A stretch of DNA of 64,000 nt. Source: Candidatus Bipolaricaulota bacterium. GTDB lineage: Bacteria > Patescibacteriota > Patescibacteriia > UBA11705 > DATKZF01. The DNA lies in assembly GCA_035528115.1 (NCBI GenBank), contig DATKZF010000003.1:292651-356650 (forward strand), read 5' to 3'. Shown one piece after another: positions 36,487-56,675 of the stretch. The position numbers and the translations under genes are program-made. The notes under the pieces are model-generated. The model was not told the origin of the DNA. It ran no database searches and was given only the letters and a program-made list of their open reading frames with translations. How positions within the stretch are numbered: position 1 is the stretch's first letter; each line of letters opens with the position of its first letter.

Positions 36487-36542
36487 TTTTTGATTGTCCG
36501 AAAAGACTATCAATCGCAACACTGCAACCCTGGAGGAGATCG

Positions 36543-37259: not shown

Positions 37260-37274
37260 AGGCAGAGGATTCTT

Positions 37275-37316
37275 GGCGGCGGAAAGATCGAGATCTTTCC
37301 GCCGCCTTTTGATTTT
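37275..37316 (+). terminator. Intrinsic terminator of the island-5 gene
   Basis: ggcggcggaaagatcgagatctttccgccgcc followed by TTTTGATTTT. Confidence 0.75.
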
Positions 37317-37370
37317 AAAAGCATGGAAAAAAAATCCATGCTTATTTATATCAAATTAAATTCAGGCTTG

Positions 37371-40300
37371 CTATTTCGCTTCTATTTTCTCCGCTTCTTT
37401 CAGATCAATGGATAACACTCGCGACACGCCGTCATCGCCCATGGAAACGCCATACAAAATATCGGCCGAGTGCATGACTACGCGATTGTGAGTGATGACC
37501 AAAAACTGCGTTTTATAAGACAACTCATTAATGATATTGGCAAAGCGCTCGGAATTGGCCTCATCGAGAGCGGCATCGACTTCATCCATGACCACGAACG
37601 GCGAGGGATTGCTGTCTATGATGGCGCACAGCAAGGCGATCGAAGTCATGGTGCGCTCGCCGCCCGAGAGCGCCGTGATATGAACAATCTTTTTATTGGG
37701 CGGAGAGACCATGATGTCTATACCTTGATTTACCGGTTTGTATTTTTTATCAAAATATTCCTTTTCAACCGGCTCTTCGACGACTTGGCCTTCAATCTGC
37801 GGAATTTTTTCGTCCTTTGAGCTTTCTTCCGACTGAACCAAGCTCAGCTTGGCCTTGCCGCCTTGAAAAATTTTCTGAAAATATTCGCTGAAAGATTTAT
37901 TGATTTTTTTAAATGAAGATTCGAATTGTCCTCTGATCACTTTATCGAGTTCGATGATTATTTGTTCCAAATCGGCGATGGCTTTTTCCAAATCCTTCAG
38001 CTGGCCGCTCAAAAACTCATATCTTTCTTTGACTTCGCTGTATTCGCCGACTATTTCCGGATCAATACCGCCGATCAAATCCAAATCATGTTTTATCTTG
38101 CCGATTTCATGCCACAATTGATCGATATTGAGCTGACCCTTGGGCTCAGGCAGATTATCAGGATTTATACTATCTCCCAGCTCCTGCCCGATTTCCCGCG
38201 ACAAATCCTCGGCCTTGGCTTCCAGCTTGGCCAGCATGATTTTCGCTTGATTTACTTTGTCCGTTATTTCATTGACTTCCGCCTGCTTTTTTTGCATTTC
38301 TTCTTGCAGTTTGAAAACCTGCGCGGTCTTTTTTTCTTCTTCGAGATTGAACCTGTCCATTTTTTCTTTGCTGACCAAAATCTTTTTCTCCAAAGACTGC
38401 AAACGATCTTCCAATTCTTTCTTTTGCCTGCTGACTTCAACCAAAAACTTGGGCTGATCTTTTGGAGACAGTTTGTTTTCTTCAAGCTCCATGACCACTT
38501 TTCTTTTTTCCACCGAAAGTCCGCCCAAATCGTTTTTCAAACCTTTTTCCTTGGTGTCATTGACTTCAATATTAACTTTCAAGTCGTTTATCTCATTGAT
38601 TAGAATTTCTTTTTCTCTCGACGAATTGTTTAATTTGTTTTTCAGGGTTTCTATTTCCTGCATTTTCGTTTCCTGCGAAATTTCAGCAATGGCGGCTTTG
38701 GCGCCGAATGAAAACACGGCTTCGCGGATTCGCCGAAAACCGCCGCGGATCGAACCGGCTTTTTCCACCAAATCTCCATCCAAAGTCACCATTCTGACCG
38801 CGCCGAATCCGATGGATTTGGCCGAATTCATTTCATCGACCACGATGGTGTCGCCCAAAACGTATGAAAAAATCTTTTTAAATTGGGGATCGAAAGACAC
38901 CAAGTCGATCGCTTTCGCTATGGCGCCTCTCTCCGCCAAAATATTTTTATGATCCGATCTTGACTCAAAAGGATTGATTTTGGTCAGCGGCAAAAAAGTG
39001 GCGATGCCCAACCTGTTTTCTTTCAAATAATTTATGCACCTGATGGCCGCGTCCTCGTCTTTGACCACGATCGAGCCGAGCCGACCGCCGGACGCCGCTT
39101 CCAAAGCGATCTGATATTTTTCATCGACTTTGCCCAGCTGGCTGACGCTGCCGAAAATACCCTTGAGATGATTTTGCTGACGCAAAATCGCGGCCACGGC
39201 CTGCTGATTGGAGGAAAAGCCCTGGCCGCCGCGGCCTTTGATTTTCGCCAAATCGTTTTGCGCCGCCTCCAAATTATTGGAAAAAAGCGTAATATTTTTC
39301 AATACCTCTTGATAGCAGTCTTGCTTTTCCGCCAGCATGCCTCGCTGATGCTCCAGCTTGGTCTGCAAATGAGACAAAGACTCGGACACTTCATTGATTC
39401 GAGACAAAACTTCTTCCTTTTTTTCTTCCATCCAGGAAATGTTTTGTTTGCCGAGTTTGGAATATTCCAAATTCGACTTGCCTTTTAAAACGGTCAAGTC
39501 TCCCAGCATCTGATTTTTTTCAGCCTGAAGCTTGTTGTATTCTTTTTGCAAATTATAAAACAGATCTTTTCTTGATTCCTGACGGGCCAGCTCAGCCAAT
39601 TGGCGCTGCAACTCACCCAATTCGGCCGCGGCTTCGGCTCTGACTTTTTCCTGAACCTGATATTCGCGATTATAATTTTTTCTTTTGCCCGAAAGATCCT
39701 TCCATAAATAGCCGTAATATTTTTCCTGCAAATCCTTGAGCGCCGCTTCCAATTCTTTTCTTTTTTCCAACTTTTTAACCTGCCGAGTCAAGGATTTCAG
39801 TCGCGGCTCCAGTTCGGCCAAAATGCCGTTTGATTGATCCAAGTTTTCCCTGGATCTCCGCAACTTATTGACCGATTGATCTCTTTTTATTTGATACTGC
39901 TTGATGCCCGTGGCTTCGTCGAAAAATTCTTTGCGCTCGGTCGGGGAAATATTGATCACGTAATCAACCATGCCTTGGCCGATGATGCTGTATGACTTTT
40001 GGCCGAAATTCGCTTTGGCCAAAAGCATTAAAATATCGAAAAGCCTGACTTTGTTTTTATTGATCAAGTATTCGCCTTCGCCGTCCCGATAAACTCGGCG
40101 AGTGATGGCCACTTCCGAATAATCAATGGGCAATTTTTTGTCTTCGTTGTTCAAAAAAAGAGAAACCTCGGCAAAACCCTGCCTGGCCAGACTCGGCGAA
40201 CCGGAAAAAATAACGTCTTCGGATTTTTTGCCGCGAAGCAATTTCAAACTTTGCTCGCCCAAAACCCAGCGCACAGCGTCGGAGATGTTGGATTTGCCAG

Positions 40301-40757: not shown

Positions 40758-43574
40758 TTATCTCAAGGTTATTGGAATTGCGCTGGTCGCGTGAGTCTGC
40801 CCCGCTTTATCAATGATTTGCGCGCTGATGGCATAGCTGCCCGAGCCGGGAAAATCAGTCCAGGAGACAAAAACCGTCTTCGAATCCGGATTTTGAACGG
40901 AACCGATTTCGGTCGAATCGTAAAAAAACTTCACTTCCTTGGTTTGACTCAAATCGGTCAACCGCCCCTTCACCACCAAAGGGAAATTATCAATCGAATA
41001 ATCGCCGCCCACCGCCGGGAACATCCAGGTCATGCTCGGAGCCGGCCGATCGGCTTTAATATTTATGTCAATCGATGTCTCGGCGAAATTATCAACGTCA
41101 TCGTAGGCGATCGCTTTCAAATTATGGTAACCGTTGACCGTATCGGATTTAATTTGATAATAAAGAGAATAAGGAGCGCTGCCGGCCGTAAAGATATAAT
41201 CGTTGTCCAAATAATATTCAACCCGGCGAATCCCGCGCGGAGCGTTGGCGAAAATCTGAGCCGATAAATTCAAATCCGTTATATCTTGCCCGCTTTGCGG
41301 CGAAGTGAATCTGACGGTCGGCTTTAATTCCGGCAAATGAACATCATCATATTCCGTGGGAGCTTTGGCGAATTCCAATTCTTTGCCCTCGGCCTTGGCT
41401 TTCTCGGAGGCTTTATCAAGCCAAGCCTGCACCGCCGCTTCCCAATTTTTATATTCGGGATCGAAATTATTTTCCGTCGGCGCCGAGCCCAACGGATCTT
41501 CTTTTCTGATATAATGCAAAATATTGTGAACTTCCATGAAGGTTTTTTCTTCAATGGCTGAAGCGGGCGTGTATTCCGTGGCCAACTTGCCGCTGAACTT
41601 ATCTATTTTTTCCGTTTTTTCCGCGGTATAACTGCCGTTTAAAATCGCTTTATCCGTTTTCGGTTTGTTGTAGCCCGCGAAACTCTCCATGGGCAAATCT
41701 TTGACCGCTTCCGCCATATAAGCGTGCCAGATCGGCGCTGCCACAACGCCGCCGGCCGCGCCTCTTTTCATTTCGCTGTTATCATTATTGCCCACCCAGA
41801 CGCCGGCCACCAAATTGGGCGTGTAGCCCATGGTCCAAGCATCGCGATAATCATTGGTGGTGCCGGTTTTGGCCGCGACGGGCCGGCCGCCCAAAGTCAA
41901 CGGATTTTGAGTTCCGAAAACGTATGCTCGCGCTTCATTGTCAGACAAAACACTGCTGATCATGCGCGAAATATTGGGATCGATCACGTCTCTGGGATCG
42001 GGATCTTCGAATTCCTCGATCAATTGACCGCCATTATCCTCTATTCTTAAAATCGCGACTGACGGCACGTATTTCCCCTCGTTGGCGTAAACCGCGTAGG
42101 CGTTGGCGTGTTCCAATAATTCGACTTCGCCGCCACCCAAAACGAGCGCCAAGCCGAAACGGCTGCGATCCTGAAATGAAGTATAACCGAATTTTTCCAA
42201 TAAATTTATAACATTGTCCACGCCGGACAAATACAGCGCTTTGACCGCCGTAGTATTGAGCGAGCCGGCCAAAGCCTTTCTGATGCTGACCGGACCTCTT
42301 TCGGCATTGTCATAATTGTGCGGAGTGTACGGCTTGCCGCCGGTGCTGAAAGTGGTCACTACGTCGAATAAAATGCTTTCCGGAGAAAATCCTTTTTCAA
42401 ACAAGGCGGAATAAACCATTGGCTTAAGCGATGAACCGGGCTGCCGAGGCCTGGTGGTCACATTAACTTGGCCATCAATGGAATCGTCAAAAAAATCTTT
42501 GGAACCGACCATGGCCAGAATCTGTCCTGTTTTCGGATCCAAAGAAATCAAGGCGGCATTGGAAAAACCGTATTGCTCGCCTCTGGCCTCCACGCCTTCG
42601 GTCACCGCTTTTTCCGCTATCAGCTGTTTGTCCAAATCCAAGGTGGTGATGACTTTTAAACCCTCTTCCAATGTTTTCTCTCCGTATTTTTCAGACAATA
42701 ATTCTTTGACATACATGACAAAGTGCGGCGCGATGATGCTTTCCGATTTTTGTTGAAAAGAAATCTCCTCTTTTTTGGCTTCATCGGCCTGCTCTTGAGT
42801 GATGTAACCCTGTTCGGCCATCTTATCCAAAACAAAATGCTGGCGATTGATCAATTCATCTTGATTGCTGCCGTAAGGCGAATAATAGCTCGGGCGTTGC
42901 GGCAATGAGGCCAAAAGAGCGCTCTCGGCCAATGTCAAATCCCGGACATCTCTGCCCAAAAAAGTCTGAGAAGCCGCGGCGATGCCGTAAGACACCGACC
43001 CGTAAGGAATTTCATTCAAATACATTTGCAATATCTGGTCCTTGGTAAATTTCTTTTCCATCTGATAAGACAAAATCAATTCTTTTATTTTTCTGGTGTA
43101 AGTTTTTTCCGAAGTCAAAATCGCGTTTTTCACGAATTGCTGAGTAATGGTCGAGCCTCCGCCGCGCGAACCGCCGAAAATCACCGCGCGCAAAACTCCG
43201 GTATAACTGAATCCGTGATGCTTATAAAAATCTTTGTCTTCAACGGCTATCGTGGCCCATTTGACCGTGTCCGGTATCTCTTCGATCGGCACCAAAGTTC
43301 TTTTCTCTTCGCCATGAACTTCATACAAAACGGTCTGGCCGGTGCGGTCGTAAATTTTCGTGCTTTGAGCGATGTCTCGCTCCATTATTTTGTTCGGATC
43401 GGGCAAGTCGCGCGAAAACCAGGCGAAAGCGCCGATTAAACAAATCACGCCGATAACAAAGCAAAAAATGCCGGCCAAAATCAATCGGCGAAGCCATAAT
43501 TTATAATCGAATTTGCCTCTTTTTTTCGGCTGGCGGTCCAGCGTGCTTTTAGATTTGATATAAGGAATCGGCAT
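40758..43574 (-). CDS. Bifunctional class A penicillin-binding protein (PBP1A-type) with a C-terminal beta-rich extension
   Basis: Transglycosylase GSTITQQ motif; transpeptidase SxxK and KTGTT motifs. Confidence 0.88.
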   Translation of the reverse strand: MPIPYIKSKSTLDRQPKKRGKFDYKLWLRRLILAGIFCFVIGVICLIGAFAWFSRDLPDPNKIMERDIAQSTKIYDRTGQTVLYEVHGEEKRTLVPIEEIPDTVKWATIAVEDKDFYKHHGFSYTGVLRAVIFGGSRGGGSTITQQFVKNAILTSEKTYTRKIKELILSYQMEKKFTKDQILQMYLNEIPYGSVSYGIAAASQTFLGRDVRDLTLAESALLASLPQRPSYYSPYGSNQDELINRQHFVLDKMAEQGYITQEQADEAKKEEISFQQKSESIIAPHFVMYVKELLSEKYGEKTLEEGLKVITTLDLDKQLIAEKAVTEGVEARGEQYGFSNAALISLDPKTGQILAMVGSKDFFDDSIDGQVNVTTRPRQPGSSLKPMVYSALFEKGFSPESILFDVVTTFSTGGKPYTPHNYDNAERGPVSIRKALAGSLNTTAVKALYLSGVDNVINLLEKFGYTSFQDRSRFGLALVLGGGEVELLEHANAYAVYANEGKYVPSVAILRIEDNGGQLIEEFEDPDPRDVIDPNISRMISSVLSDNEARAYVFGTQNPLTLGGRPVAAKTGTTNDYRDAWTMGYTPNLVAGVWVGNNDNSEMKRGAAGGVVAAPIWHAYMAEAVKDLPMESFAGYNKPKTDKAILNGSYTAEKTEKIDKFSGKLATEYTPASAIEEKTFMEVHNILHYIRKEDPLGSAPTENNFDPEYKNWEAAVQAWLDKASEKAKAEGKELEFAKAPTEYDDVHLPELKPTVRFTSPQSGQDITDLNLSAQIFANAPRGIRRVEYYLDNDYIFTAGSAPYSLYYQIKSDTVNGYHNLKAIAYDDVDNFAETSIDINIKADRPAPSMTWMFPAVGGDYSIDNFPLVVKGRLTDLSQTKEVKFFYDSTEIGSVQNPDSKTVFVSWTDFPGSGSYAISAQIIDKAGQTHATSAIPITLR

Positions 43575-43637: not shown

Positions 43638-44702
43638 TCATCTTTTCGCCGAGCCACGACTCTTTTTACTTGGCTTTTTTCGCTTTAATTTCTTCACGGT
43701 CTCCGGATACAGCTGATCTATAATCGCTCCCGCGGCATTGCGAGGTTTTCCGGAGTACGGTTCATGATGAATACTGAGCATTGGCGAATCATTGACTTCA
43801 ATAATGATATAATTTTTTTTGTTTGGCTTTTTGGTGACATCGGTTGTCAGATAATCGATCCCGCCAAAACCCAGACCGGGAATTGCTCTGATTACTTTCA
43901 CGGCCAATTTTTTCACTTCCGGATGAATATCTTCAGTCGAGTCATAACTGTCCCCGCCCGTGGATATATTGGAATTGGCTCTCAAAAAAATTTGCTCTCC
44001 TTTTTTTGGAATACAATCGAGATTCTTTTTTTGTTTTTTCAAATTCATTCTGACCGCCTCGTCAACTTTTATTTTAACCAGACTTTTTTCATGACTCATC
44101 CCCCTTCTGGTATCCATATTCTTTTCCTTAATCAAATCCTTTATCGTGTGAAAGCCGTCTCCCACCACATTGGCGGGCACTCGAAGCGTCGCGGCCACGA
44201 ATTTATCCTTCGTTGCCAATAAACGATACTCTTTGCCGAAAAACATTTTTTCCACGATAATTTTTTTAAATTTGGTGTTTTTGAATTCCGCCAAAGCCGC
44301 TCTGACCTTTTGATCGGAATTCAAATCAACAAAAACATGTTTTCCCTGAATGCCGCTCAAGGGCTTAATAACGACGGGAAATTTAATTTTATGACAAAAA
44401 CTTAATATTTCTCGACTGTCGCTATAATTAAAAATTTGTCCTTCAGACACGTTTATACCGGCTTTTTTGAAAAAAAACTTGGCCAATTGCTTGTTTTTTT
44501 GAATCCAATAAGCGATGCAATCCGTTTTAGATGTTCTCTGGCCAACGATTATTTCGCGATGTCCTTTATAATTCAATTCCAACAAACTGTCCTTGGCCAT
44601 CGGCCCCTCCGTAAAAATTTTATTTACCTCAATTTCCCTGTCTTCCGATTCTTTGGCGAGAAGATATGTGCTGGACTGTAAAAATTGCCACGGTTTTAAC
44701 AT
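43638..44702 (-). CDS. ATP-grasp domain protein (cyanophycin-synthetase/RimK-like ligase)
   Basis: FPVVIKPLSGIQGKHV; C-terminal IIIEVNDSP. Confidence 0.55.
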   Translation of the reverse strand: MLKPWQFLQSSTYLLAKESEDREIEVNKIFTEGPMAKDSLLELNYKGHREIIVGQRTSKTDCIAYWIQKNKQLAKFFFKKAGINVSEGQIFNYSDSREILSFCHKIKFPVVIKPLSGIQGKHVFVDLNSDQKVRAALAEFKNTKFKKIIVEKMFFGKEYRLLATKDKFVAATLRVPANVVGDGFHTIKDLIKEKNMDTRRGMSHEKSLVKIKVDEAVRMNLKKQKKNLDCIPKKGEQIFLRANSNISTGGDSYDSTEDIHPEVKKLAVKVIRAIPGLGFGGIDYLTTDVTKKPNKKNYIIIEVNDSPMLSIHHEPYSGKPRNAAGAIIDQLYPETVKKLKRKKPSKKSRGSAKR

Positions 44703-44739
44703 AGAGTTTGAATTTATTTTTTAAGGGAAATATCTTCAG

Positions 44740-45630
44740 CTACTTTTTCTCGCGATATACTTTTTCTAAAAACTTAATAATTCTATCCGCGATATTTATG
44801 CCGGTGACCAAAGACAATCTTTCAAAACCCGGGCAGCGATTGACCTCCAGTATATAAGGTTTGCCGTCCCGATCATAAATCAAATCCACCCCGGCAATGT
44901 CGGTATTGGCGGCTTTGGCCGCTCTGACGGCCAAGTCTTTTTGTTTTTTGCTCAAAACATGTTTTTGGCTGCGTTGTGCAAGCGGCACCCGATGATTTTT
45001 AAGATAACTCAATGTATAGCGCTTTATTGACCCGACAGATTCATTGCCGATAACAAAAACTCTGTAATAATGATCCGCCTCTATAATTTCCTGAATAAAA
45101 AAATCATTTATCTTGTGTTTGCTCAAAAATTTCAACAACTGATTATTGCTGTTCTCATTGAAAATATTTTTTCCATGCATGCCCTGAATATCCTTGACCA
45201 ATACCGGAAAAGGCAGTTTAACTCCGCTTTTCTTGAATTCTTTGATGTCGGAAAAATACCAACAGTCGGGGCAAGGCAGCCCATGATAGCTGAGCGCGGC
45301 ATAGCCGAACATTTTGTCGAATACATATACTTTGCGGTACAATTCACGATCAACCACTTCTTTGCCGCAACGCTTGAGGTATTTGGCAATGGTATGCGCT
45401 TTTTCCATATACGGATAAATGCCGCGGATCAAACAAATATCAAAGTCCCGGATGTCTTGCCTGCCGATCTTCACGATAAATTTTTTATCCTTTAAAACAA
45501 AACAAAAATCAACAATGGACGCCAGCTTAACCCGATGACCGCGAACTTTGACCGCTTTGGCCAGCGCTCGATTGGCATAATTTTCAGGTCCCACTATGAG
45601 TATTTTCATAATATTATTTAGACGGATCAA
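44740..45630 (-). CDS. RimK-family ATP-grasp ligase
   Basis: PVLVKDIQGMHGKNIF and GVDLIYDRDGKPYILEVN motifs. Confidence 0.75.
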   Translation of the reverse strand: MIRLNNIMKILIVGPENYANRALAKAVKVRGHRVKLASIVDFCFVLKDKKFIVKIGRQDIRDFDICLIRGIYPYMEKAHTIAKYLKRCGKEVVDRELYRKVYVFDKMFGYAALSYHGLPCPDCWYFSDIKEFKKSGVKLPFPVLVKDIQGMHGKNIFNENSNNQLLKFLSKHKINDFFIQEIIEADHYYRVFVIGNESVGSIKRYTLSYLKNHRVPLAQRSQKHVLSKKQKDLAVRAAKAANTDIAGVDLIYDRDGKPYILEVNRCPGFERLSLVTGINIADRIIKFLEKVYREKK

Positions 45631-47014
45631 CCAAAAATCGCTGCAAATCGCGGCGACCGATGATCGCCTGATAAGCCAGCTCTTTTCGACTGACGACCGA
45701 GACGCGGGTGTTAATATCGAAACCGGATAAATTAATGGTCACCGGCACTTCGATGCGGTAAGTGGCGCCGTGGCTGCTCAAGGTCTTGGCCACGGCCACG
45801 ATGTCGGGGTGTTTTTCCAATTCTTTGAAAACTTTTTTCGCGGACAGCTCCTCCATTTCTTCCCTGGTCAGGACGCTTTTGATGTTGAATGAATTGTAAT
45901 AATCAATCGCTTCTTGAAATCCCAGCTCAATGGCCAATTCTTCGTCAATCGCGGAAATACCCGCTCCGGTGTCTATCTTGGCTTCGATTTCAACCGCTTT
46001 GGTTTTATTCTTGCCTAAAATTTTAACTTGCTCAATAATGCCGACCACTTGTTTGCCGGAAATTTCTTCAATCTCTTGCTCCACGTCTCCGCCGAAAAGT
46101 TCTTTGGCCACCTTAATACCCTTGGCCACTGTTTTTATTTTCAAACCCTGCACTCGAAGCAAACGTTCTTTGAGCGGCGCCATATTGGCGATCTGAATGG
46201 ATAAGCCCGGATGCGCGTTCAATTCCAAAATAACCGGCCCCTTTTCCCGATCAATGGCCACGTCGACTCCAAGATAATTCAATTTGGTGGCTTGTTGCGA
46301 CTCAATGGCGATTTCCAAAATCTTGTTCCAAAAAGGAATTTTAATGCCACTCATCGGAAATCTCGTGCCCGGCAGATATTCGATCAATTTGTTATTTAAA
46401 ATGGCGCGAGTGGTAATTCCCGTAGTGATATCAATGCCCACGCCGATGCCGCCCATGTGCAGATTGGCTTTGCCTCCCGAATCTTTGGTGGGCAGCCGCA
46501 GCATGGACATGACCGGCACGCCGTTGAACACGATAATGCGGATATCGGGAATGCCCTTATACGCGTAAAGTTTAAAACTGGGATGAATCTTCAATCTCTC
46601 CTCGAAAAAAGCGATGTCTGACGCGTGGCTTTTCGAATAATCACCGTCCAAGATATTGCTGGCATGCTCTTTGATTTCATCCAAGGTGATTTCCCTGTCT
46701 TTTGACATGATCCAAACGCCGTTTCTCTTGCGACCGAAGGTGACGATAATGCCTTCTCCGCCGAGTCCCATGTTGGGCTTTAACACAAAACTTGAAGGCA
46801 AAAGATCCCAGTCGAAATTATACAATTCTTGACGGTCTGAAATCACGGCGATCAAATCCGCGACGGGCAGACCGACTTCAAACAAGACCTCTTTCGATAA
46901 AAGTTTGTTGTCCGCGATTTTAACGGCAGAAGATTTATTGTATCTTCTGACAAATTGCAGGTTCCGGGCGTTCATGCCCAAAATACCTTTACTTTTTTTC
47001 AGCATCTTCAACAT
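45614..47014 (-). CDS. Alpha-L-glutamate ligase-like ATP-grasp fused to a zinc-protease/retropepsin-like domain
   Basis: N-terminal sugar-transfer-associated ATP-grasp pattern; C-terminal IDTGAGISAIDEELA...RIEVPVT. Confidence 0.6.
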   Translation of the reverse strand: MLKMLKKSKGILGMNARNLQFVRRYNKSSAVKIADNKLLSKEVLFEVGLPVADLIAVISDRQELYNFDWDLLPSSFVLKPNMGLGGEGIIVTFGRKRNGVWIMSKDREITLDEIKEHASNILDGDYSKSHASDIAFFEERLKIHPSFKLYAYKGIPDIRIIVFNGVPVMSMLRLPTKDSGGKANLHMGGIGVGIDITTGITTRAILNNKLIEYLPGTRFPMSGIKIPFWNKILEIAIESQQATKLNYLGVDVAIDREKGPVILELNAHPGLSIQIANMAPLKERLLRVQGLKIKTVAKGIKVAKELFGGDVEQEIEEISGKQVVGIIEQVKILGKNKTKAVEIEAKIDTGAGISAIDEELAIELGFQEAIDYYNSFNIKSVLTREEMEELSAKKVFKELEKHPDIVAVAKTLSSHGATYRIEVPVTINLSGFDINTRVSVVSRKELAYQAIIGRRDLQRFLVDPSK

Positions 47015-48557
47015 TTTTTATAACCTTTCTAAATCTTATGTATTCGACCAATCTGATGCCGGCCCACTTGCCCAAAATCATATTGACGATAATGCACAAA
47101 AATATCACTTCGGGATAGCCGAGTAATATCGACTTGGTAAATTGCAAACTGGCGATCCAATAACAAAAGCTGGACAACACCAAAGTTTCCAGCGTCAGCA
47201 TGATCGCCGCCTTATTGCCTTTTTCAATTTGCACGGACACGAATTTTTCGGATAAAACAATGAGAATCAAAATCGGAAAAATGGAAATGGTGAGCATGCC
47301 GGCGTCTTTTATCATCGCGCCGCCAAGCAGCAAAGCGAAAATCGTTAAACTGACCAGGATCAAAATCAGCGCCATCCTGGGCAGATAAAGCAACCTTAAT
47401 TTTTTAGCCAGAATCCTGCCGATGCTGGCGATGGCGATAATAATGCCGAAAATAATCAAACCGTAAACAATGCCCGTGCCCAGAAACGATAAGGCGATGA
47501 TCGCGGGCGTATAAATGCCGAAGGCTTTAAATCCGATGAACTGCCGGCTGAATGATAAAATGGTGGCGATGACCGGCAAAACCAATAAAAGGTAAAGGGT
47601 GTTGATGGGCACGCCTTGATTGACCATGTAACTGATGGCGTAAGCCAAAAAATTCCAAGGCCGAAGCTGCTGTATTTCCCGCTGAGTATGAAGACCGATA
47701 ATCTGATACTCGATGTCGTCTTCTTTCAAATCGCGAAGCAATGAATCCAAATTAATAACCGTTACGGAGCTATTGATCGCGCTCTGGTCAGCCAAAACTA
47801 TAAATTGAGGTTCCACCAGATTGAACAATGTTTGCGCCAATCTGGAGGTGGAAGCGAATTTATTGGTTATGTTGATGATGACCTTGTTGGAAAAGCCGAA
47901 ATCGACCAAGCCCGTGCGGTCGGGAGACCCGGTGGCGCCCAACGCTTGCGCGGCGTCAATCATGGCATTGAGGCCGATATTGCCTTGCGTCCAAATAATA
48001 ATATTTTTCGCCTGTTTGATGTTTTCTTTTGATTCGATTATTTTTTGCGCCAACTCATTTTCCACGGCCAGGTCCAAATCCTTGGTTTCGTTTTTAATAT
48101 TCACGATCAAAATACCTTGGGTGCTGGAGATCATTTGCAGATTATTTATCTCTTCCGCGGAAATGGTGTGATCCGTGATTAAAATAATCAAATCTTTATC
48201 CACGGAAACAATAAATTGATCTACCGATTGTTCGTTGGTCAATTTATTTTGGAGAGTCAGGCTGGCTCGATAAAAACCCGGATTTTTGTAAGTGTAAACC
48301 GCTTCGCTGCCGGTCGCTCGTCCGTCATCGCCGAAATTCCAAATATATTCCACTTCCGAACCTTCGGGAACACTCGATCCGGCCGCTGAAAACAGCACCT
48401 GCCGGCCGACGACCACGTTACGGTCTCCGCCCGATACGGCTTTGAGGGGCACTTGCAATATTTCGCTTTGATTGTTTGTTTCAGCCGCGATCGCGGAATT
48501 TAATAACAGACCGCCGGCCATAAACGATAAAACCAACAAGGCTAAAAATTTTTTCAT
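46989..48557 (-). CDS. Secreted PKD-like domain fused to a 7TM membrane domain
   Basis: Signal peptide; VYTYKNPGFYRASLT PKD-like motif; seven C-terminal TM helices. Overlaps the ATP-grasp gene. Confidence 0.55.
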   Translation of the reverse strand: MKKFLALLVLSFMAGGLLLNSAIAAETNNQSEILQVPLKAVSGGDRNVVVGRQVLFSAAGSSVPEGSEVEYIWNFGDDGRATGSEAVYTYKNPGFYRASLTLQNKLTNEQSVDQFIVSVDKDLIILITDHTISAEEINNLQMISSTQGILIVNIKNETKDLDLAVENELAQKIIESKENIKQAKNIIIWTQGNIGLNAMIDAAQALGATGSPDRTGLVDFGFSNKVIINITNKFASTSRLAQTLFNLVEPQFIVLADQSAINSSVTVINLDSLLRDLKEDDIEYQIIGLHTQREIQQLRPWNFLAYAISYMVNQGVPINTLYLLLVLPVIATILSFSRQFIGFKAFGIYTPAIIALSFLGTGIVYGLIIFGIIIAIASIGRILAKKLRLLYLPRMALILILVSLTIFALLLGGAMIKDAGMLTISIFPILILIVLSEKFVSVQIEKGNKAAIMLTLETLVLSSFCYWIASLQFTKSILLGYPEVIFLCIIVNMILGKWAGIRLVEYIRFRKVIKNVEDAEKK

Positions 48558-48566: not shown

Positions 48567-49070
48567 TTATTTCACTCTCAACATTTTTAAAGAATTTGAT
48601 GCGCAAATGGCCGCGGCCAGCGCGTCGGCCGCATGGCTTGGCGTCGGTAGAACGTCCATATTCAACAATATTTGAACCATTTTTTGAACTTGTGTTTTGT
48701 CGGCTCGGCCATAAGCGGCCAAAGCCTGCTTTATTTGCAAAGGCGTAAAAACCAAAACGGGCACGCTTGCCAAGCTGGCGGTCAAACTGATCACGCCGCA
48801 CGCTTGACTGACTTTCAAGGCACTTTTGGCATTCTTGGCGAAAAAAAGATCTTCGACGGATAAGTAGTCGGGCCGATATTTTTTAATAAGCTCTCCGAGC
48901 TTTTTGTGAATTTCAAGCAACCGATGGGAAAATTCAAGACCGCTTTCGGTATGAATACAGCCGTACTCCAACAAGGAATCTTGCCCGAGGATATTTGAAA
49001 TAACGCCGTAACCGGTGTCCGCCAAACCCGGATCGACCCCCAAAATAATTGTGGATTTAATTTTTGGCAT
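48567..49070 (-). CDS. ruvC: Crossover junction endodeoxyribonuclease RuvC
   Basis: ILGVDPGLADTGYGVI ... SHAADALA. Confidence 0.85.
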   Translation of the reverse strand: MPKIKSTIILGVDPGLADTGYGVISNILGQDSLLEYGCIHTESGLEFSHRLLEIHKKLGELIKKYRPDYLSVEDLFFAKNAKSALKVSQACGVISLTASLASVPVLVFTPLQIKQALAAYGRADKTQVQKMVQILLNMDVLPTPSHAADALAAAICASNSLKMLRVK

Positions 49071-49782
49071 TTGAATACACGCAGCTTATATCATCCGAGT
49101 CTTCCAGCGCTTCGATTATCTCTTCAAGCTTGGCCTTATCATCAGCCGATATTTCAACTTTTTCTTTGGAGATCCATTCGAGACCCGCGTAATCCGGCGA
49201 CAGGCCGGCTTGCCTGATTTCATTTTCCAAATTTTTCAAATTCTCGCGCGTCGTCAAAACCGTTAACCCGCCCTCTTCCGATTTAACGTCATCAGCTCCA
49301 AAATCTATGATTTCCAGAGCCACCTGGTCTTCTGATTTGCCAGCCAAGGCGTCCGCCGGTACTCTGATCACGCCTTTTTGTTCGAACATCCATTTCACCG
49401 AGTTGGCGCCGCCGAGAGCGCCGCCCATTTTATTGAAAACAGCCTTCACGTCGGAAACGGTTCGGTTGCGATTGTCCGTGGTTCCCTCGATTAAAAGTCC
49501 GACGCCCGCCGGACCGAAAGCTTCGTATAAAACTTCTTCGATAACATCTCCTCCCAGCTCTCCCGCGCCTCTGGCAATGGCTCTCTCGATGTTGTCTTTG
49601 GGCATATTGCTCGCGCGCGCTTGGTCAATGGCCAGCCGCAACTTAAAATTGGCCTCGGGATCTTTCCCTTCCCTGGCCGCCAGGATAATATTTCGCGCCA
49701 ATTTCGTAAAAACCGAAGCTTTCTTTTTGTCTGACGCTTCTTTTTGCCTGTGGGTCGTTGCCCACTTGGAATGGCCTGACAT
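49057..49782 (-). CDS. yebC: YebC/PmpR-family transcriptional regulator
   Basis: MSGHSKWATTHRQK start. The ORF-track N-terminal extension is spurious. Confidence 0.85.
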   Translation of the reverse strand: MSGHSKWATTHRQKEASDKKKASVFTKLARNIILAAREGKDPEANFKLRLAIDQARASNMPKDNIERAIARGAGELGGDVIEEVLYEAFGPAGVGLLIEGTTDNRNRTVSDVKAVFNKMGGALGGANSVKWMFEQKGVIRVPADALAGKSEDQVALEIIDFGADDVKSEEGGLTVLTTRENLKNLENEIRQAGLSPDYAGLEWISKEKVEISADDKAKLEEIIEALEDSDDISCVYSNAKN

Positions 49783-50213: not shown

Positions 50214-50252
50214 CCCAAATGTTTCATGCAAAATATTTTCCCAAAAATAAAA

Positions 50253-51755
50253 ATGTCTCTTTTCTGGCAAACTATCATTGTTTTTTGTATCTCCTTGTTT
50301 TTATTTTCCCTGACCCAATTTCCCCACACGTTCTATGACCCGGACGGATTTTATCACGCCAAAATTTCCGAAACGATCGCCGAGCGCGGCCTTGTCAAAT
50401 CTTTTCCCTGGACGCAATTCGCCACGCTCAAAGACGGCTTTGTCGATCATCACCTCGGATTTCATCTGCTGATCGCGCCGCTAACCAAAATCTTCCCCTC
50501 GGAATACGCGCTCAAACTGGGCAACCTTTTCATCAATTCCGCTTTTGTCTCCGTATTTTTTCTTTTCCTCAAAAAAAATAAAATAAAATACTCCTGGCTG
50601 TTCACTTCATTTTTATTTCTAACCGCTCCGCTTTACGCCAGACTGAGCATGAATAAAGCCATTGGGTTGGCCCTGCTTTTGCTGATGTTTTTTATCTGGG
50701 CGCTTATGGCTGAAAAAAAATGGCCGTTGTTTTTCATCAGCGCTCTTTTTGTCTGCAGTTATGGCGGCTGGCCGATAAGCATTATCGTTTTAATTTGCTA
50801 TATCGTTGCCAGAATTCTTTTCCAAATAGTGGAAAATAAAAAAATGGATAAGAAATTAAAAAATCATTTACTCGGCGCCGCCTGCTTGACTTTGGCCGGA
50901 CTGGCGGCGGGCCTGGTGATCAATCCATATTTTCCGCAAAATCTGAATTTTTATTGGCAGCAAGTGGTTCAAATCGGCCTGATCAATTATCAAAATCAGC
51001 TCAACGTGGGCTCGGAATGGCTGCCTTATGATTTCATTACTTTGGCGGCCGGCACTTTTTTCCTCTGGGGCATTTTGATTTTTTCGCTGAAAGCGATTAT
51101 GGATCAAAAAGCAAAACTTAATTGGCGACACATTTTTCTGACCTTCTCTTTTATCATCTTTTTCGCCGTCACTTTGAAGTCGCGAAGGTATATCGAATAT
51201 TTCGCGCCATTTTTTATTCTCTACATCGCTTTTTTATCCCGTGAATTGGATTTGAAAAAATTGCTGGGAGGCCTCGGCGTCAAAATGAAATGGTTTTGCC
51301 TGTCTTTGACCGCTTTGTTGGCCGGACTGATCCTCGCCAATTTCAGCTCGACCATCCAAATATTTCAAACCAAGCACTCCGTTGACAAATTCAGCGGCGC
51401 CGCGGCTTGGCTGGCTGAAAACACGGCCGAAGGGTCAATTGTTTTTCACACCGATTGGGATGATTTTCCCATGCTGTGGTTTCACAATGACCGCAATTAT
51501 TATATCGGCGGCCTGGATCCGACATTCACCTATTTATTCAACCCGGAATTGTCGAAAAAATGGATGAGCATCTCTTCGGGCAGCCAAGCGGACGAACTTT
51601 ATCTAATAATTAAAAACGATTTTCAGGCAAACTATGTCTTTGTGGAGAAAAACAATCACGCGCTTTTTTTAAACAATTTGGAAAATAACTTTTTGGCTGA
51701 AAAAAAATTCGAAGACGCTGAAAGCGCAATTTTTCACCTTAAAAACAACGATTGA
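50253..51755 (+). CDS. Polytopic membrane protein, GT-C glycosyltransferase-like
   Basis: Multiple TM helices; start chosen at MSLFWQ. Confidence 0.5.
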   Translation: MSLFWQTIIVFCISLFLFSLTQFPHTFYDPDGFYHAKISETIAERGLVKSFPWTQFATLKDGFVDHHLGFHLLIAPLTKIFPSEYALKLGNLFINSAFVSVFFLFLKKNKIKYSWLFTSFLFLTAPLYARLSMNKAIGLALLLLMFFIWALMAEKKWPLFFISALFVCSYGGWPISIIVLICYIVARILFQIVENKKMDKKLKNHLLGAACLTLAGLAAGLVINPYFPQNLNFYWQQVVQIGLINYQNQLNVGSEWLPYDFITLAAGTFFLWGILIFSLKAIMDQKAKLNWRHIFLTFSFIIFFAVTLKSRRYIEYFAPFFILYIAFLSRELDLKKLLGGLGVKMKWFCLSLTALLAGLILANFSSTIQIFQTKHSVDKFSGAAAWLAENTAEGSIVFHTDWDDFPMLWFHNDRNYYIGGLDPTFTYLFNPELSKKWMSISSGSQADELYLIIKNDFQANYVFVEKNNHALFLNNLENNFLAEKKFEDAESAIFHLKNND

Positions 51756-53362
51756 ATCAAATGACCAAAAACATTTCGCAAATTATCAAAAGTTTTTCAA
51801 AAAAAGACTGGCTCTGTCTGTCTATTATTTCTTTGGTTTTGATTGCGATCGTTTCAATTACCTATATTTTCGGTTTGACTTCATCTGATGCCGATCATAT
51901 TTTCAACGGACGGCGCGCCACATCTCCCGGAGACACCTCGGTTTATTTTTCATACATCAATCAAGCGAAACAAGGCGACGGTTTTTTCATCAATCAATTC
52001 ACTTCCGAAAAAGACGAACTTAAAGTCTTCAATATCTTCTGGCTGATGGCCGGCAAATTCGCGGCCGTTTTCCGCCTGTCCGCGCCGGCAACCATGCTGG
52101 CGCTAAAAATTTTACTGGCGCCGATTTTTGTTTTATTTTGCTATGTCTTTTTGAGTTTGTTTTTTGAAAATAAACGCGTAAAGCGCCTCGCGCTGATTCT
52201 GATTTCATTTTCTTCCGGAGTCGGGCTTTGGTTCGGTTTTCTGAATGGAGAGCAAAATACTTTTTTGAAAGCGCCGATCGATCTGTGGGTGACGGAAAGT
52301 AATTTTTTCACTTCGTTTTTGCACTCGCCGCATTTCATTTTGGCCTGGACATTGCTTTTGATCGTTTTTTCTTTTTTCATTTTGGCCGTTCGAAACAATA
52401 ATTGGAAACAAAGCTTTCTGGCCGGCCTGACCGCGCTTTTTCTCTTTCAATTTCATCCCTATAATTTTCTGACGGTTTACGCGGTCTGCCTGACTTTCAC
52501 GATTTATGAAATTTTTCTTAAAAAAACATGGCGACCTTCGGTCCACTTTTTACTTCTGACCGTTGTTTCCGTTCCTTCCGTAATTTATCATTTTTTCACG
52601 CTTTCCGACACTCTCATCGCCGCGCGTTCCGCTCAAAACATCACCCTGACTCCCCCGCTCATTTACGTGGCTTTGGGCTTTGGAATATTTTTCCCTTTGG
52701 CGATTTGGGGCGTTTGGAAAATTTTCAAAAACAACATGGAAGACAAATATATTTTCCTTGTCATCTGGCTGTTGGTCGGTTTATTGCTGATATATTTTCC
52801 GGGTTTTCAATTTCAACGGCGCTTGCTTTTGGGTCTTCAAATTCCGATAATCATGTTGGCTTTCATCGGTCTTGGAAATTTCGTTGAAAAAACGGCTGAC
52901 AAAATAAAACGATCCAAACTGTCCGCCATGATCGCCGTGTATTTGGCCATGATTTTTATTTTGCCGACCTCTTTTTACCACCTTGCTTCCGATTTTTTAT
53001 ATTATTTCAATCACGAGCCTCTTTTCTATCAAACGTCCGAGCAAAAAAAAATCATTGAAGCAATAGAAGCGGACAATGGCCCGGTCAATATCATTATCTG
53101 CGAAGACATTCCTTTCGCCAATACTTTGCCGATTTATTTGCCGAATAAAATTTTTCTGGCTCACCTTCATGAAACGACTTTTTTCGAAAACAAAAAAAGC
53201 CTGCAAGCAAACTTTTTCAATCAAGCGATGACGCCGCTCGATGCTGAAAATTTTATTCGGAACAATTTTATCGAATATGTCATTTCAAAAAAACCGCTGC
53301 CTTATAATTTTCTGGAACCGATTATTGGCGGAGAAAAATATTTCTTATATCGAGTCAATTGA
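51752..53362 (+). CDS. Polytopic membrane protein, GT-C glycosyltransferase-like
   Basis: Multiple TM helices; 4-bp overlap with the upstream gene. Confidence 0.5.
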   Translation: MNQMTKNISQIIKSFSKKDWLCLSIISLVLIAIVSITYIFGLTSSDADHIFNGRRATSPGDTSVYFSYINQAKQGDGFFINQFTSEKDELKVFNIFWLMAGKFAAVFRLSAPATMLALKILLAPIFVLFCYVFLSLFFENKRVKRLALILISFSSGVGLWFGFLNGEQNTFLKAPIDLWVTESNFFTSFLHSPHFILAWTLLLIVFSFFILAVRNNNWKQSFLAGLTALFLFQFHPYNFLTVYAVCLTFTIYEIFLKKTWRPSVHFLLLTVVSVPSVIYHFFTLSDTLIAARSAQNITLTPPLIYVALGFGIFFPLAIWGVWKIFKNNMEDKYIFLVIWLLVGLLLIYFPGFQFQRRLLLGLQIPIIMLAFIGLGNFVEKTADKIKRSKLSAMIAVYLAMIFILPTSFYHLASDFLYYFNHEPLFYQTSEQKKIIEAIEADNGPVNIIICEDIPFANTLPIYLPNKIFLAHLHETTFFENKKSLQANFFNQAMTPLDAENFIRNNFIEYVISKKPLPYNFLEPIIGGEKYFLYRVN

Positions 53363-55094
53363 TCTTAAGCGGTTCGGTCAAATTTTCTATTTTTGAAAAA
53401 TTATTTTCGACGAAATATAAATTGTTCAAATACAAGCCGCCTTCGACTTCAACCGAATAGGCAAAAATTTCAGCGTCTTTTTCCCGCGAAACCGTCAATT
53501 CATCAGTAAACGGCCAAAACAGCCGTTTTTTTATGGTTTTCCCATCAATTTGATATTCAATCAGCATGGGCTTTTTATCTTCGCTTGCCTCAAAATTTTC
53601 AAGGTTGATTTTTACAAAATTAGCCTCATCAAAGGCAACCTCCTGTCCCGATTTTCCGTAAATCAAATATCTGTCTTTATTTTCCAGCAAAACAAGGCCG
53701 TTTTTTTTGATTTTTTCCAGCAACTCATCGCCACCGCTAGAATAATATTTTTGATAATACGGCCGATTGTCTTTTTGCAAATAAAAAGTCAGCAATTCGT
53801 CCTGATCAATGATCAAGTAATCCAACCCGGGCGTCTCGTATTTTTGATCGGAAAATTGTCGGTGGCCCCAAAAAATTCTGGTCGTTGAATAGACAACGTT
53901 TTTTTCGGACAAATAAACGGCCAAAGACGCGGGCGCGGCTACAATGGAATTTTCAATGGCCGTGGCCGGCGGCGCCGCCGCCGCCGTAGAGACGCGCCGC
54001 GGCGCGTCTCTACCCGCCCGCGCGAACGCGGGCGGCCACGGCCCGAAAAACCAATTTAAATAAATAATGGCCGCGATCAAAACAAACGGCGCCATTTTTT
54101 TGTAGGCGTTAAAAATAAAAATTTTGCCCGGCCGGTCATTTTTTAAAACCTCGATCAAAGCCAAATAGCAGGGAATAAAAAGCGGCGCGCCATAATGCAG
54201 ATTGGCGACCGGCGCGCCGAAGGCCAAGGCGATTTGCAAATAATAAAAAAGGCCGATAACCAGATATCTGGGACGCAGGAGCGGCAAAAAAACCAACGGC
54301 AAGAAAATCTGCACCAAAAGCTCCAGTTGTCCGAGGCTGAAAACGCGGCCAAGAACCGTGTGCCAATCAAAATAGACCAAAAATTTGCTGGCCTCGCCGT
54401 TAAAATGCTTTATCGTCAGCCAACCGATAATTAAAAACAATAGACTAGAAAAAATAGTCGTCAAAACCTTGGGAAAAAACAAGGCTTTTTGGAAACCGAC
54501 AATCCTTCTTTTTTCCAAAAAGATAAACAGAGCAAAGCCGAGTAGCAAAATTCCCATATCTTCCCTGATCAGCAAAGTCAAAAACAAAAAAACATAATAA
54601 CCGGCTTGATTGTTTTCAAGATAAAAATAGTACAGCCAAAAAAAGAAAAAGAACAAAAACGGCAAAAAGTGAAATTCGAACAAGTTCATGCCGATGATGA
54701 ACGGATTGAATAAATAGGCGATCAAAACCAAAATTGTTTTATTGAAATTTAAACTCTTTCGACAAATCAAATACAACGGCCAAGCTCCGAGGCCGATAAA
54801 CAACGTTTGCAAAAAGAGCAACAAAATCGGTGATTGTAAAAAATGATACAGCGGATAAAATATAAAAAACAAAAAGCTGAAATGGTCCGCAAAATACTGC
54901 GCTCCCTGCAAAGGCACGAACAAAAAATTGCCCGCGTCAAGACTTTGGAACGCCTGAAAAAAAATGGTCAAGTCAAGACCGTTATAAAGATGGTTGTGAT
55001 ATTTGAAAAGGCAAACCGAAAAAACAGCGGCCACGTAAACCGTGATTGAGCAAATTAGAATCACTTTGCGTTTCATATGACTTAATGATATCAA
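53355..55094 (-). CDS. Polytopic membrane protein (DUF2079-like) carrying an in-frame GC palindrome insertion
   Basis: N-terminal TM bundle; palindromic element at 53961..54040 encodes GRDAPRRVSTAAAAPPATA in frame. Confidence 0.5.
   Translation of the reverse strand: MISLSHMKRKVILICSITVYVAAVFSVCLFKYHNHLYNGLDLTIFFQAFQSLDAGNFLFVPLQGAQYFADHFSFLFFIFYPLYHFLQSPILLLFLQTLFIGLGAWPLYLICRKSLNFNKTILVLIAYLFNPFIIGMNLFEFHFLPFLFFFFFWLYYFYLENNQAGYYVFLFLTLLIREDMGILLLGFALFIFLEKRRIVGFQKALFFPKVLTTIFSSLLFLIIGWLTIKHFNGEASKFLVYFDWHTVLGRVFSLGQLELLVQIFLPLVFLPLLRPRYLVIGLFYYLQIALAFGAPVANLHYGAPLFIPCYLALIEVLKNDRPGKIFIFNAYKKMAPFVLIAAIIYLNWFFGPWPPAFARAGRDAPRRVSTAAAAPPATAIENSIVAAPASLAVYLSEKNVVYSTTRIFWGHRQFSDQKYETPGLDYLIIDQDELLTFYLQKDNRPYYQKYYSSGGDELLEKIKKNGLVLLENKDRYLIYGKSGQEVAFDEANFVKINLENFEASEDKKPMLIEYQIDGKTIKKRLFWPFTDELTVSREKDAEIFAYSVEVEGGLYLNNLYFVENNFSKIENLTEPLKIN
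53961..54040. repeat. GC-rich nested palindromic element (copy 3), located inside a CDS
   Basis: ggccgtggcc...gccgtagagacgcgccgcggcgcgtctctac...ccgcccgcgcgaacgcgggcgg...ggccacggcc. Confidence 0.8.
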
Positions 55095-55572: not shown

Positions 55573-55610
55573 AAATTTTTTAATTTATTGATATTTAAGT
55601 TAATTTTATT

Positions 55611-56000: not shown

Positions 56001-56005
56001 ATTTA

Positions 56006-56374: not shown

Positions 56375-56379
56375 ATCGG

Positions 56380-56600
56380 TTACAAATTTACAAATCTTTT
56401 ACTAATGCACAAATTGTTACACGCTATATGTTACGAATTACAATATCCTATTTAACTTTCAGGTTATTTGTTACTAATTACAAGATTCTCAGGCTTAAGG
56501 CTATAGGTGAATGTCCCAATGGGATCACTTCGTGATACTTCGTAACAATACAAATAAAGAGCCATTTAGTGAATGTAATTCGTAACATCTTCTCGATTCA
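56380..56600. repeat. Repeat region B of the TTGTAATTCGTAACA family (inverted relative to region A)
   Basis: Reverse complement aligns to 40485..40600. Confidence 0.7.
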
Positions 56601-56675
56601 GCCATCTACAAAGATAAATGACTGAACCAAGAAGGGCAGAGTTTCCCAGCTGGGACGCAAACCCTGCCTCCTCTT

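Follow-up and report, generated by a model that had tools for sequence, protein, structure and literature searches.

A PKD-headed seven-transmembrane protein paired with an ATP-grasp ligase-retropepsin fusion: an Rlo-like gene cluster of Patescibacteria with a possible role in building and trimming acidic peptides

Genomic neighborhoods that combine an ATP-grasp amidoligase, a seven-transmembrane (7TM) protein headed by an inactive transglutaminase and an aspartyl peptidase are said to have been predicted in 2009 by Iyer, Abhiman, Burroughs and Aravind (Mol Biosyst 5:1636), in a study that was reportedly the origin of the Pfam families PF14397 and PF14402 and that reportedly covers the transglutaminase-headed, proteobacterial form. 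The same three-component theme is found in the cluster described here, four genes (A to D) at positions 43638-48557 of a 64,000-nucleotide stretch (the window) of contig DATKZF010000003.1, which has a size of 762,837 bp. The original prediction for this segment had likened it to ATP-grasp amidoligase-7TM systems. The resemblance is correct, and the closest characterized relative is the rloABC operon of Pseudomonas aeruginosa, a system named only in 2025 (Lormand et al. 2025, mBio, PMC12239564).

In P. aeruginosa, the phenotypes associated with Rlo concern cell shape, biofilm formation, β-lactam susceptibility and hypo-osmotic sensitivity/osmotic tolerance, and in Vibrio cholerae the VxrAB cell-wall-damage regulon includes the orthologues (PMC12239564). 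Deletion of rloB or rloC suppresses the lethality and defects of the RloA protease triple mutant (PMC12239564), and the 7TM protein and the ligase therefore generate the target of the protease. RloA acts on runs of at least eight Glu residues; the polyglutamate (polyE) contacts K46, R114 and R137, and mutation of R114 or R137 abolishes function (PMC12239564). The RloA structures 9g58 and 9g59 were deposited by the same authors, and 96% of the RloB hits fall in Proteobacteria (PMC12239564). A related pair is formed by RimK, which makes α-polyglutamate tails, and the retropepsin endopeptidase RimB, which removes them and stimulates polymer synthesis by RimK; in the RimBK hybrid the protease is N-terminal to a true RimK (Little et al. 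2025, JBC, PMC11957791).

The four genes of the cluster are as follows.

46989..48557, minus strand: gene A, 522 amino acids (aa); putative signal peptide, PKD domain, orphan α/β domain and RloB-type 7TM module
45614..47014, minus strand: gene B, 466 aa (463 aa in the public call); RloC/TIGR02291-type ATP-grasp with a C-terminal retropepsin-like peptidase
44740..45609, minus strand: gene C, 289 aa from the ATG (the open reading frame [ORF] reaches a TTG at 45630); RimK/LysX/MptN-family ATP-grasp
43638..44702, minus strand: gene D, 354 aa; stand-alone cyanophycin-synthetase G-domain-like ATP-grasp

The coordinates given originally match four minus-strand ORFs exactly, and the public gene calls of the same contig agree with ORFs A to D. 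The translational overlap that had been claimed for the whole cluster holds for A and B, whose reading frames overlap by 17-26 nucleotides (nt), and does not hold for the other genes, since B and C are 4 nt apart (with C read from its ATG start) and C and D are 37 nt apart.

With Rlo this cluster shares a PF14402/RloB 7TM module, an ATPgrasp_ST ligase that is borderline for TIGR02291 (the RloC type) and a RimB/RloA retropepsin with the DTG motif and the K/R/R residues, all encoded together, as well as a link to the envelope, which in Rlo is given by the phenotypes and in the cluster by synteny with PBP1A, a class A penicillin-binding protein. It differs from Rlo in its head, which is made of a PKD and an orphan α/β domain where RloB has an inactive transglutaminase, in the zero to five extra ATP-grasp ligases and occasional MATCAP-like peptidase found in its family, and in its hosts, which are Patescibacteria, whereas RloB is mainly proteobacterial. 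The cluster is Rlo/Rim-like in its working and lies outside the Rlo system as defined. No description of the PKD plus α/β head, of the ligase-retropepsin(-MATCAP) fusions or of the distribution in Patescibacteria was found in the searchable literature, and nothing relevant was found there on MATCAP with ATP-grasp in bacteria or on Patescibacteria with ATP-grasp or PKD. The PKD-headed, fused Patescibacteria cluster is a previously undescribed variant of the Rlo envelope-stress system. At a probability of roughly 45%, we propose that it is a membrane-coupled machinery for the synthesis and trimming of an acidic peptide of the poly-α-glutamate type, probably for the cell envelope.

The ligase and the peptidase of this proposal are both contained in B.

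46124..46996, minus strand: ATP-grasp domain of B (residues 7-297), matched by ATPgrasp_ST and TIGR02291, with an invariant KANLH-GG motif
45617..46060, minus strand: RimB/RloA-type retropepsin of B (residues 319-466), with D348-T-G, G453-R-R-D and the basic residues K346, R420 and R443

An alpha-L-glutamate-ligase-like ATP-grasp fused to a zinc-protease/retropepsin-like domain had been predicted here, and both halves were recovered, the ligase through TIGR02291 and ATPgrasp_ST and the peptidase through PF05618 at the level of the family. The match to ATPgrasp_ST (PF14397) is strong (1.8e-68, 231 bits against a cutoff of 31.4). Alignment with RimK and within the family showed that the catalytic residues D251, E264 and N266 and the nucleotide contacts K79 and R159 are invariant. 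The AlphaFold2 (AF2) model of B (predicted local distance difference test [pLDDT] of 82.7) gave RimK (4iwx), ArgX/LysX and CphA1 as its best Foldseek matches; ATP-grasp matches take up that list, so the retropepsin part rests on profiles and motifs.

Because the window copy of the retropepsin is under the Pfam threshold for PF05618 (Zn_protease/RimB-like; 9e-4, 19.6 bits against a cutoff of 27), the domain was checked at the family level, where PF05618 matches 31 of 35 aligned members, the best at 5.7e-11. The retroviral gag-asp_proteas models match three relatives of B, the NCBIfam model RloA3 matches the C-terminal part of B at 4.4e-5, and precomputed annotation labels homologues "RimB-like." When the family profile was compared with the PDB, the RloA crystal structures 9g58/9g59 were retrieved (E of 1.2e-3). 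In that alignment K/R346, R420 and R443 of B fall on K26, R94 and R117 of the 9g58 chain, which are K46, R114 and R137 of RloA, and all three are invariant or nearly so across the Patescibacteria B proteins. This conservation indicates that the peptidase most likely handles an acidic chain of the polyglutamate type and that the ligase or ligases most likely make one. In the family alignment D348, G350 and G453 are invariant, T349 is nearly so, and the GRRD motif is invariant alongside DTG; homology supports a catalytically intact domain. Being fused to a cytoplasmic ligase and preceded by no signal peptide, the peptidase appears to be cytoplasmic.

The domain order of B is the reverse of that in RimBK, and its ATP-grasp belongs to another subfamily; Rim also has no 7TM partner. 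What B shares with RimK/RimB is the combination of an ATP-grasp α-L-glutamate ligase with a cytoplasmic retropepsin that trims polyglutamate, for which ligase-protease fusions exist. The window copy carries a helical insert of approximately 55 aa in the retropepsin, which relatives of the Andersenbacteria type do not have. At the N terminus of B, an LGMNARN motif is nearly invariant in the family; the monomer model shows it as disordered, and it may serve as a docking peptide. With 6,223 of 8,000 scored candidates at E ≤ 0.001, the family of B is a large one, and its members are mostly 450-480 aa long among the matches listed.

Protein A combines four regions.

48483..48557, minus strand: putative signal peptide/membrane anchor of A (residues 1-25, MKKFLALLVLSFMAGGLLLNSAIA followed by AE), from sequence inspection, with a hydropathy peak of 2.16
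48222..48440, minus strand: PKD β-sandwich of A (residues 40-112), with a conserved WxFGDG motif, matched by Pfam PKD_4 and PKD
47658..48206, minus strand: family-specific Rossmann/flavodoxin-like α/β ectodomain of A (residues 118-300), with invariant D129, T190 and G195
47016..47651, minus strand: 7TM module of A (residues 303-514), homologous to RloB/PF14402 by hidden Markov model (HMM) matches, motifs and hydropathy

The prediction of a secreted PKD protein joined to a 7TM module agrees with the HMM matches of A. PKD_4 (3.9e-15) and PKD (4.6e-11) match residues 40-112, where the β-sandwich fold is also found, and 7TM_transglut (PF14402) matches residues 320-512 (7.3e-29, 101.4 bits against a cutoff of 25). 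Positions 298-507 of the 508-position NCBIfam RloB model (NF052267) align to residues 303-514 alone (1.2e-20). A is not an RloB equivalog, because the whole protein scores 73.7 bits where the equivalog cutoff is 900. More than 115 homologue clusters have the architecture of A.

It had been suggested that the PKD head stands in place of an inactive transglutaminase. The absence of a transglutaminase is upheld, and the head proved to contain, besides PKD, the unannotated α/β domain. The AF2 model of A (pLDDT of 76.5 overall and approximately 85-90 in the head) shows a PKD and a Rossmann-like domain, and no PF14400-type match was found in A. A diverged, inactive transglutaminase was considered for the head and rejected, given the missing HMM match, the restriction of the RloB match to the 7TM part and the AF2 fold; the α/β ectodomain is not a transglutaminase.

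Hydropathy and the positive-inside rule predict seven transmembrane segments that leave the head on the outer face and the Lys/Arg-rich C-terminal helix in the cytoplasm. The motifs conserved in the 7TM part of the family (RQxIGxKAxGIYxP, YLPRMA and GxRLxEYxRFR) fall on the cytoplasmic side under this topology. An active role, in docking combined with translocation or signaling, is favored over mere anchoring by how well the module is conserved, by its many invariant Pro and Gly residues and by the basic motifs on its cytoplasmic side. Across loci, tblastn identity is 43-77% for the 7TM part, 37-78% for the ligase and 22-65% for the head. Headless proteins of 222-230 aa that consist of PF14402 alone are found at L084:5889-6557, L086:4856-5548 and L087:4897-5583 of the relative loci. 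Since these variants still lie ahead of the ligase-retropepsin gene and of accessory ATP-grasps, the core module can do without the ectodomain.

To see how widely this arrangement occurs, GTDB species representatives were covered by a pattern scan, which gave 371 confirmed relatives of A; the best 80 loci were analyzed. B follows A in all 74 loci with enough flank, across many Patescibacteria lineages, which places the arrangement far beyond chance, and in many loci the ends of the A and B tblastn matches overlap by up to 22 nt. The number of extra stand-alone ATP-grasps within 7 kb downstream of B varies among 67 loci, being zero in 42, one in 11, two in eight, three in five and five in one; the D clade occurs in 21 loci and the C clade in four loci plus the window. 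From this co-occurrence the A-B pair appears to be the conserved functional core, with C and D as parts of a lineage-variable cassette of zero to five extra ligases, and the "three ligases" originally described are one state of that cassette. The 7TM partner is obligate and probably translationally coupled to B.

Close homologues of A, B and D with a meaningful organism name come nearly all from Patescibacteria (Kuenen-, Falkow-, Kerfeld-, Andersen-, Peregrini-, Gracili-, Doudna- and Moranbacteria, among others), many of the GTDB "binchicken" relatives bearing placeholder names such as "uncultured Gammaproteobacteria." The system is widespread in Patescibacteria and not peculiar to the genome of the window. 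Given these homologues and the small contig, the NCBI label "Candidatus Bipolaricaulota bacterium" looks wrong for the contig.

Some lineages carry additional peptidases. In the Peregrini/Gracilibacteria type, B is a triple fusion of 790-800 aa made of the ATP-grasp, the retropepsin and a MATCAP-like metallopeptidase (PF08014, 3.3e-48) with intact HEIETH...EEGLA motifs, and elsewhere the MATCAP gene is separate.

L018:9403-11805: triple-fusion B, found also in L032, L052, L065, L070, L072, L075, L079 and L080
L038:10962-12053, L036:5325-6446 and L088:2352-3296: separate MATCAP gene right after B

The idea that MATCAP substitutes for the retropepsin in the B proteins of approximately 800 aa was rejected, as these sequences keep the retropepsin. 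Stand-alone retropepsin paralogues, which begin at the domain itself and have no signal peptide, occur in some relatives. In the tubulin tail code, TTL/TTLL ATP-grasp ligases add Glu or Tyr to acidic C-terminal tails, and MATCAP/CCP peptidases erase them. The pairing of a ligase with a MATCAP domain in bacteria is detyrosinase-like and reminiscent of this code. The likeness is one of analogy only: sister lineages fuse a MATCAP-family domain to the B ligase, whereas B of the window lacks such a domain, and the cluster is membrane-coupled and without a tubulin-like substrate. The repeated recruitment of MATCAP nevertheless fits peptide-tail editing.

The two accessory ligases of the window belong to different ATP-grasp families. 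C, predicted to be RimK-like, does match RimK (PF08443; 1.7e-22, 80.4 bits against a cutoff of 21) and TIGR00768 (rimK_fam; 8.7e-37, 127 bits against a cutoff of 143.4), and its ATP-grasp motifs read GVDLIYD...ILEVN. It scores 57.2 bits against the E. coli RimK equivalog model PRK10446, whose cutoff is 331, and is a member of the superfamily only and not a RimK orthologue. As in the Rim system, this RimK-family gene lies right after a RimB-like domain, that of B; in contrast with that system, no link to ribosomal protein S6 was found in the window.

D, the third ATP-grasp of the prediction, proved to be specifically like the G domain of CphA. It aligns with positions 159-474 of the 862-position model TIGR02068 (7.3e-91, 305.5 bits against an equivalog cutoff of 850) and with residues 173-465 of the 909-aa chain of CphA1 7lgn (9.4e-57), spanning the whole G (ATP-grasp) domain at approximately 40% identity; the C-terminal domain of GshAB is also matched in the PDB profile comparison. 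The motifs GIDYLTTD...IIEVN align with the nucleotide/Mg motifs of CphA1 and are intact. CphA1 (PDB 7lgn, 7lg5 and 7wac) has about 880-930 aa, whereas D is the G domain alone in 354 aa, and since it lacks the N domain and the MurE-like M domain of CphA it makes no cyanophycin, a β-Asp-Arg polymer. Taken together with the domain matches of A and B, the calls made originally for all four genes were upheld by HMMs, profiles or structure models, and homology supports the presence of three catalytically intact ATP-grasp carboxylate-amine ligases, B, C and D, in the cluster.

The D family comprises 348 proteins, which among the matches listed are mostly approximately 315-365 aa long and, where named, from Patescibacteria. 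Of seven D homologues looked up independently, six directly follow a pair of 7TM_transglut and ATPgrasp_ST genes in otherwise different contexts; such loci carry up to five accessory ligases, which in three cases are followed by PBP1A. A different setting is seen at L085:3322-12299, where a D-type ligase cluster without the 7TM-ligase pair lies beside ruvA-ruvB and contains two small ATP-grasps plus an ATP-grasp_IQCH/PGM1_C protein, a GATase/peptidase-C26 protein, a GalT-like protein and a large GT4 glycosyltransferase. D of the window ends in a Lys/Arg-rich tail (KKLKRKKPSKKSRGSAKR, window 43638-43700), which most homologues, being shorter (about 335-343 aa), apparently do not have. This tail could bind a membrane or a polyanion.

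The neighborhood of the cluster points to the envelope. The genes that flank it in the window are as follows.

40758..43574, minus strand: PBP1A, class A penicillin-binding protein (Pfam Transgly 5e-58, Transpeptidase 3.9e-24, Big_7)
48567-49043, minus strand: ruvC (Pfam and public gene calls)
49057-49782, minus strand: yebC (Pfam and public gene calls)

PBP1A runs in the same direction as the cluster, as had been noted originally, and this recurs in relatives: 31 of 67 loci have a co-oriented PBP1A gene downstream, which in 14 comes immediately after B, and PBP1A directly follows the ligases in the window and in loci L083, L086 and L087. In the Kerfeldbacteria type (L011:10941-16136), where the A-B pair sits between ruvC and ruvA, the genes after A-B are ruvA, a FemAB-family gene (2.7e-36), genes for an NTP-transferase, a CofD-like protein and a HAD hydrolase, xseA and a D-like ATP-grasp. 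The PBP1A and FemAB neighborhood, together with the Rlo phenotypes, suggests an envelope destination of the product. In the window, yebC, ruvC, A, B, C, D, PBP1A and SMC form a co-directional minus-strand block at 37.3-49.9 kb that probably starts at yebC/ruvC; ruvC lies 9 nt upstream of A, D and PBP1A are 63 nt apart, and the gaps in the cluster span 4-63 nt. No terminator-like site was seen on the minus strand from yebC to PBP1A in a promoter/terminator scan, whose counts were not above those of shuffled sequence and which was used solely for this point. Across relatives ruvC is directly upstream of A in 66 of 76 loci.

In the mechanism that we propose, the ATP-grasp of B, which has all the catalytic residues, would activate a carboxylate as an acyl-phosphate and then add amino acids, as its homology supports. 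The product would be an acidic chain of the poly-α-glutamate type. The retropepsin of B may act as a cytoplasmic homodimer that trims or limits this chain, as RimB does for RimK, and the MATCAP-like carboxypeptidase of sister lineages may serve the same purpose. A, by way of its highly conserved cytoplasmic loops and its C-terminal helix, would tether the ligase to the membrane, and would either hand the product across the membrane or present it there; the acceptor of the product is presumed, as is the role of the 7TM module. The outward PKD and α/β head could bind a ligand of the wall or surface, in place of the inactive transglutaminase of RloB. C, from a family that adds Glu, and D, of the CphA G type that extends the C-terminal carboxylate of a peptide, may extend or diversify the chain. 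A wider version, which we regard as doubtful, sees in A-B a widespread envelope device of Patescibacteria, in which the ectodomain senses the condition of the wall or of the host-cell surface and the 7TM module couples that signal to, or translocates, a peptide from a variable ATP-grasp "assembly line" edited by fused retropepsin/MATCAP-type peptidases.

Several observations weigh against the building and trimming of a polyglutamate-type chain. The substrate, the product and the contact between A and B are putative, and the case for polyE comes down to three residues seen through a weak profile match (E of approximately 1e-3) across a 55-aa insert. B, encoded next to a 7TM gene, is borderline as an RloC-type ligase by its score against TIGR02291 (4.8e-88, 295.2 bits over nearly the full model against a curated cutoff of 314.2). 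In Rlo the protease RloA is a secreted, stand-alone protein; that of B forms the C-terminal part of the ligase and lacks a signal peptide, so the logic of the two systems may differ. Of the 67 loci, 42 have neither C nor D, and the up to five different accessory ligases of some loci are easier to reconcile with a defined hetero-oligopeptide than with a homopolymer. Inherited gene order could account for the synteny with PBP1A, as for that with ruvC/yebC. As for an acceptor, the 64-kb window contained no S6 homologue, no ORF with an acidic C-terminal tail and no LysW-like small carrier ORF.

ATP-grasp enzymes act in wall-peptide synthesis, as in the case of Ddl, and on this precedent B, C, D and their paralogues could add a short, defined peptide (a side chain or cross-bridge) to UDP-N-acetylmuramic acid-peptide or lipid II at the inner leaflet, at a carboxylate or amine that is free, with the peptidases proofreading, the 7TM protein coupling to export or wall sensing and PBP1A polymerizing. 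The placement of PBP1A after the ligases, the bridge-building FemAB-family enzyme two genes after B in Kerfeldbacteria-type loci, the cassettes of two to six distinct ligases, suggestive of stepwise addition of differing residues, and the Rlo effects on cell shape and β-lactam susceptibility with the VxrAB connection all speak for such tailoring of peptidoglycan. We nonetheless consider it unlikely: PBP1A is nonadjacent in over half of the loci, and the synteny with ruvC/yebC is tighter still, where a functional connection is implausible; the cluster contains neither Mur nor flippase genes; and the conserved basic residues of the retropepsin suit a polyanionic chain and not a wall stem peptide. 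In another reading, A would sense an external cue such as host contact through its head and switch B and C on or off; B and C would polyglutamylate the C terminus of a cytoplasmic protein such as S6, and the retropepsin would erase this mark, as RimK and RimB do in the control of translation. The cytoplasmic, RimB-like peptidase, the RimK-family gene right after it (an echo of rimB-rimK and of the RimBK hybrid) and the head, modular or absent in some lineages that retain the 7TM-ligase core, are in line with this. Such tailing is quite unlikely, as C is no RimK orthologue (57 of 331 bits) and occurs in five loci only, the window included, no S6 gene or acidic-tailed ORF lies near the cluster in the 64-kb window, the headless 7TM variants are left unexplained by a pure sensor role, and Rlo genetics indicate a product that acts outside the cytoplasm.

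The nearest families of D, namely the G domain of cyanophycin synthetase, the C-terminal domain of GshAB and the synthetase of N-acetylglutaminylglutamine amide (NAGGN), raise instead the possibility of a small free peptide or polyamide produced by C and D together with B (an osmolyte of the NAGGN kind, a thiol like glutathione or a reserve like cyanophycin), which the 7TM protein would release or sense during osmotic shifts. The hypo-osmotic sensitivity of Rlo mutants, the use of glutamate as an osmolyte and the D-type cluster of L085, which lies without A-B beside a GATase/peptidase C26 gene, accord with a soluble metabolite. It is improbable all the same, since cyanophycin is excluded by the missing N and M domains, the window has no GshA or GNAT partner, the A-B core is without C or D in most loci, and an endopeptidase that requires at least eight Glu residues, as RloA does, is unsuited to a dipeptide product. 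Finally, Patescibacteria genomes are gene-dense and co-directional, and unrelated genes (ruvC/yebC and SMC) share the block, so the four genes could be neighbors through inherited order in a compact genome. That they form no functional unit is hardly credible in the face of A-B adjacency with overlapping ends in every one of the 74 loci across lineages, of the D homologues that keep beside the 7TM-ligase pair in six of seven otherwise different contexts, and of the 7TM, ligase and retropepsin trio being one genetic pathway in Pseudomonas.

The cluster bears on the question of what Rlo systems make. The Patescibacteria variant marks the 7TM module and the ligase as indispensable parts, and it indicates that a cytoplasmic, fused peptidase is possible and that the polyglutamate-binding residues are conserved across phyla. 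The MATCAP fusions, the headless 7TM proteins and the zero to five extra ligases are natural "experiments" that narrow the chemistry to peptide-tail editing. That three to six ATP-consuming ligases are kept beside the main wall synthase in minimal genomes suggests an important, unexplored envelope feature of these episymbionts. If the wider device outlined above is true, it would constitute a surface-peptide pathway independent of the ribosome and of nonribosomal peptide synthetases and tied to PBP1A, and it would show what Rlo does in pathogens. B, with ligase and protease in a single polypeptide, is a compact and attractive object for biochemistry.

Other features were observed in the window. 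Three large polytopic membrane proteins at 50226-55094, divergent from or adjoining the block, have 509 aa (weak DUF5935), 536 aa (no Pfam match) and 579 aa (DUF2079), and are possibly glycosyltransferase-C-like envelope enzymes. Upstream of the DUF2079 membrane protein, a tandem array of six small genes at approximately 55156-58323 on the minus strand matches T4SS_pilin/TrbC (PF18895/PF04956), and a similar pilin array lies a few kilobases upstream of the cluster in a relative (L083:1-1937). A GC-rich island at 36500-37500 (0.58 versus approximately 0.44 in its neighbors) has long ORFs on both strands; the publicly called gene at 36543-37259 on the plus strand (238 aa) has no Pfam match, and a strong palindromic hairpin with a 14-bp stem lies at 37275-37306, between this gene and the end of SMC. 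The 23S-5S rRNA genes (10985-14164, minus strand) are not linked to the 16S gene (30744-32229, plus strand), which lies approximately 16.6 kb away and is followed by a loose run of six tRNAs at 32465-34750. The 23S match covers 3,022 nt against a model of 2,925 positions and may hold an insertion of approximately 100 nt.

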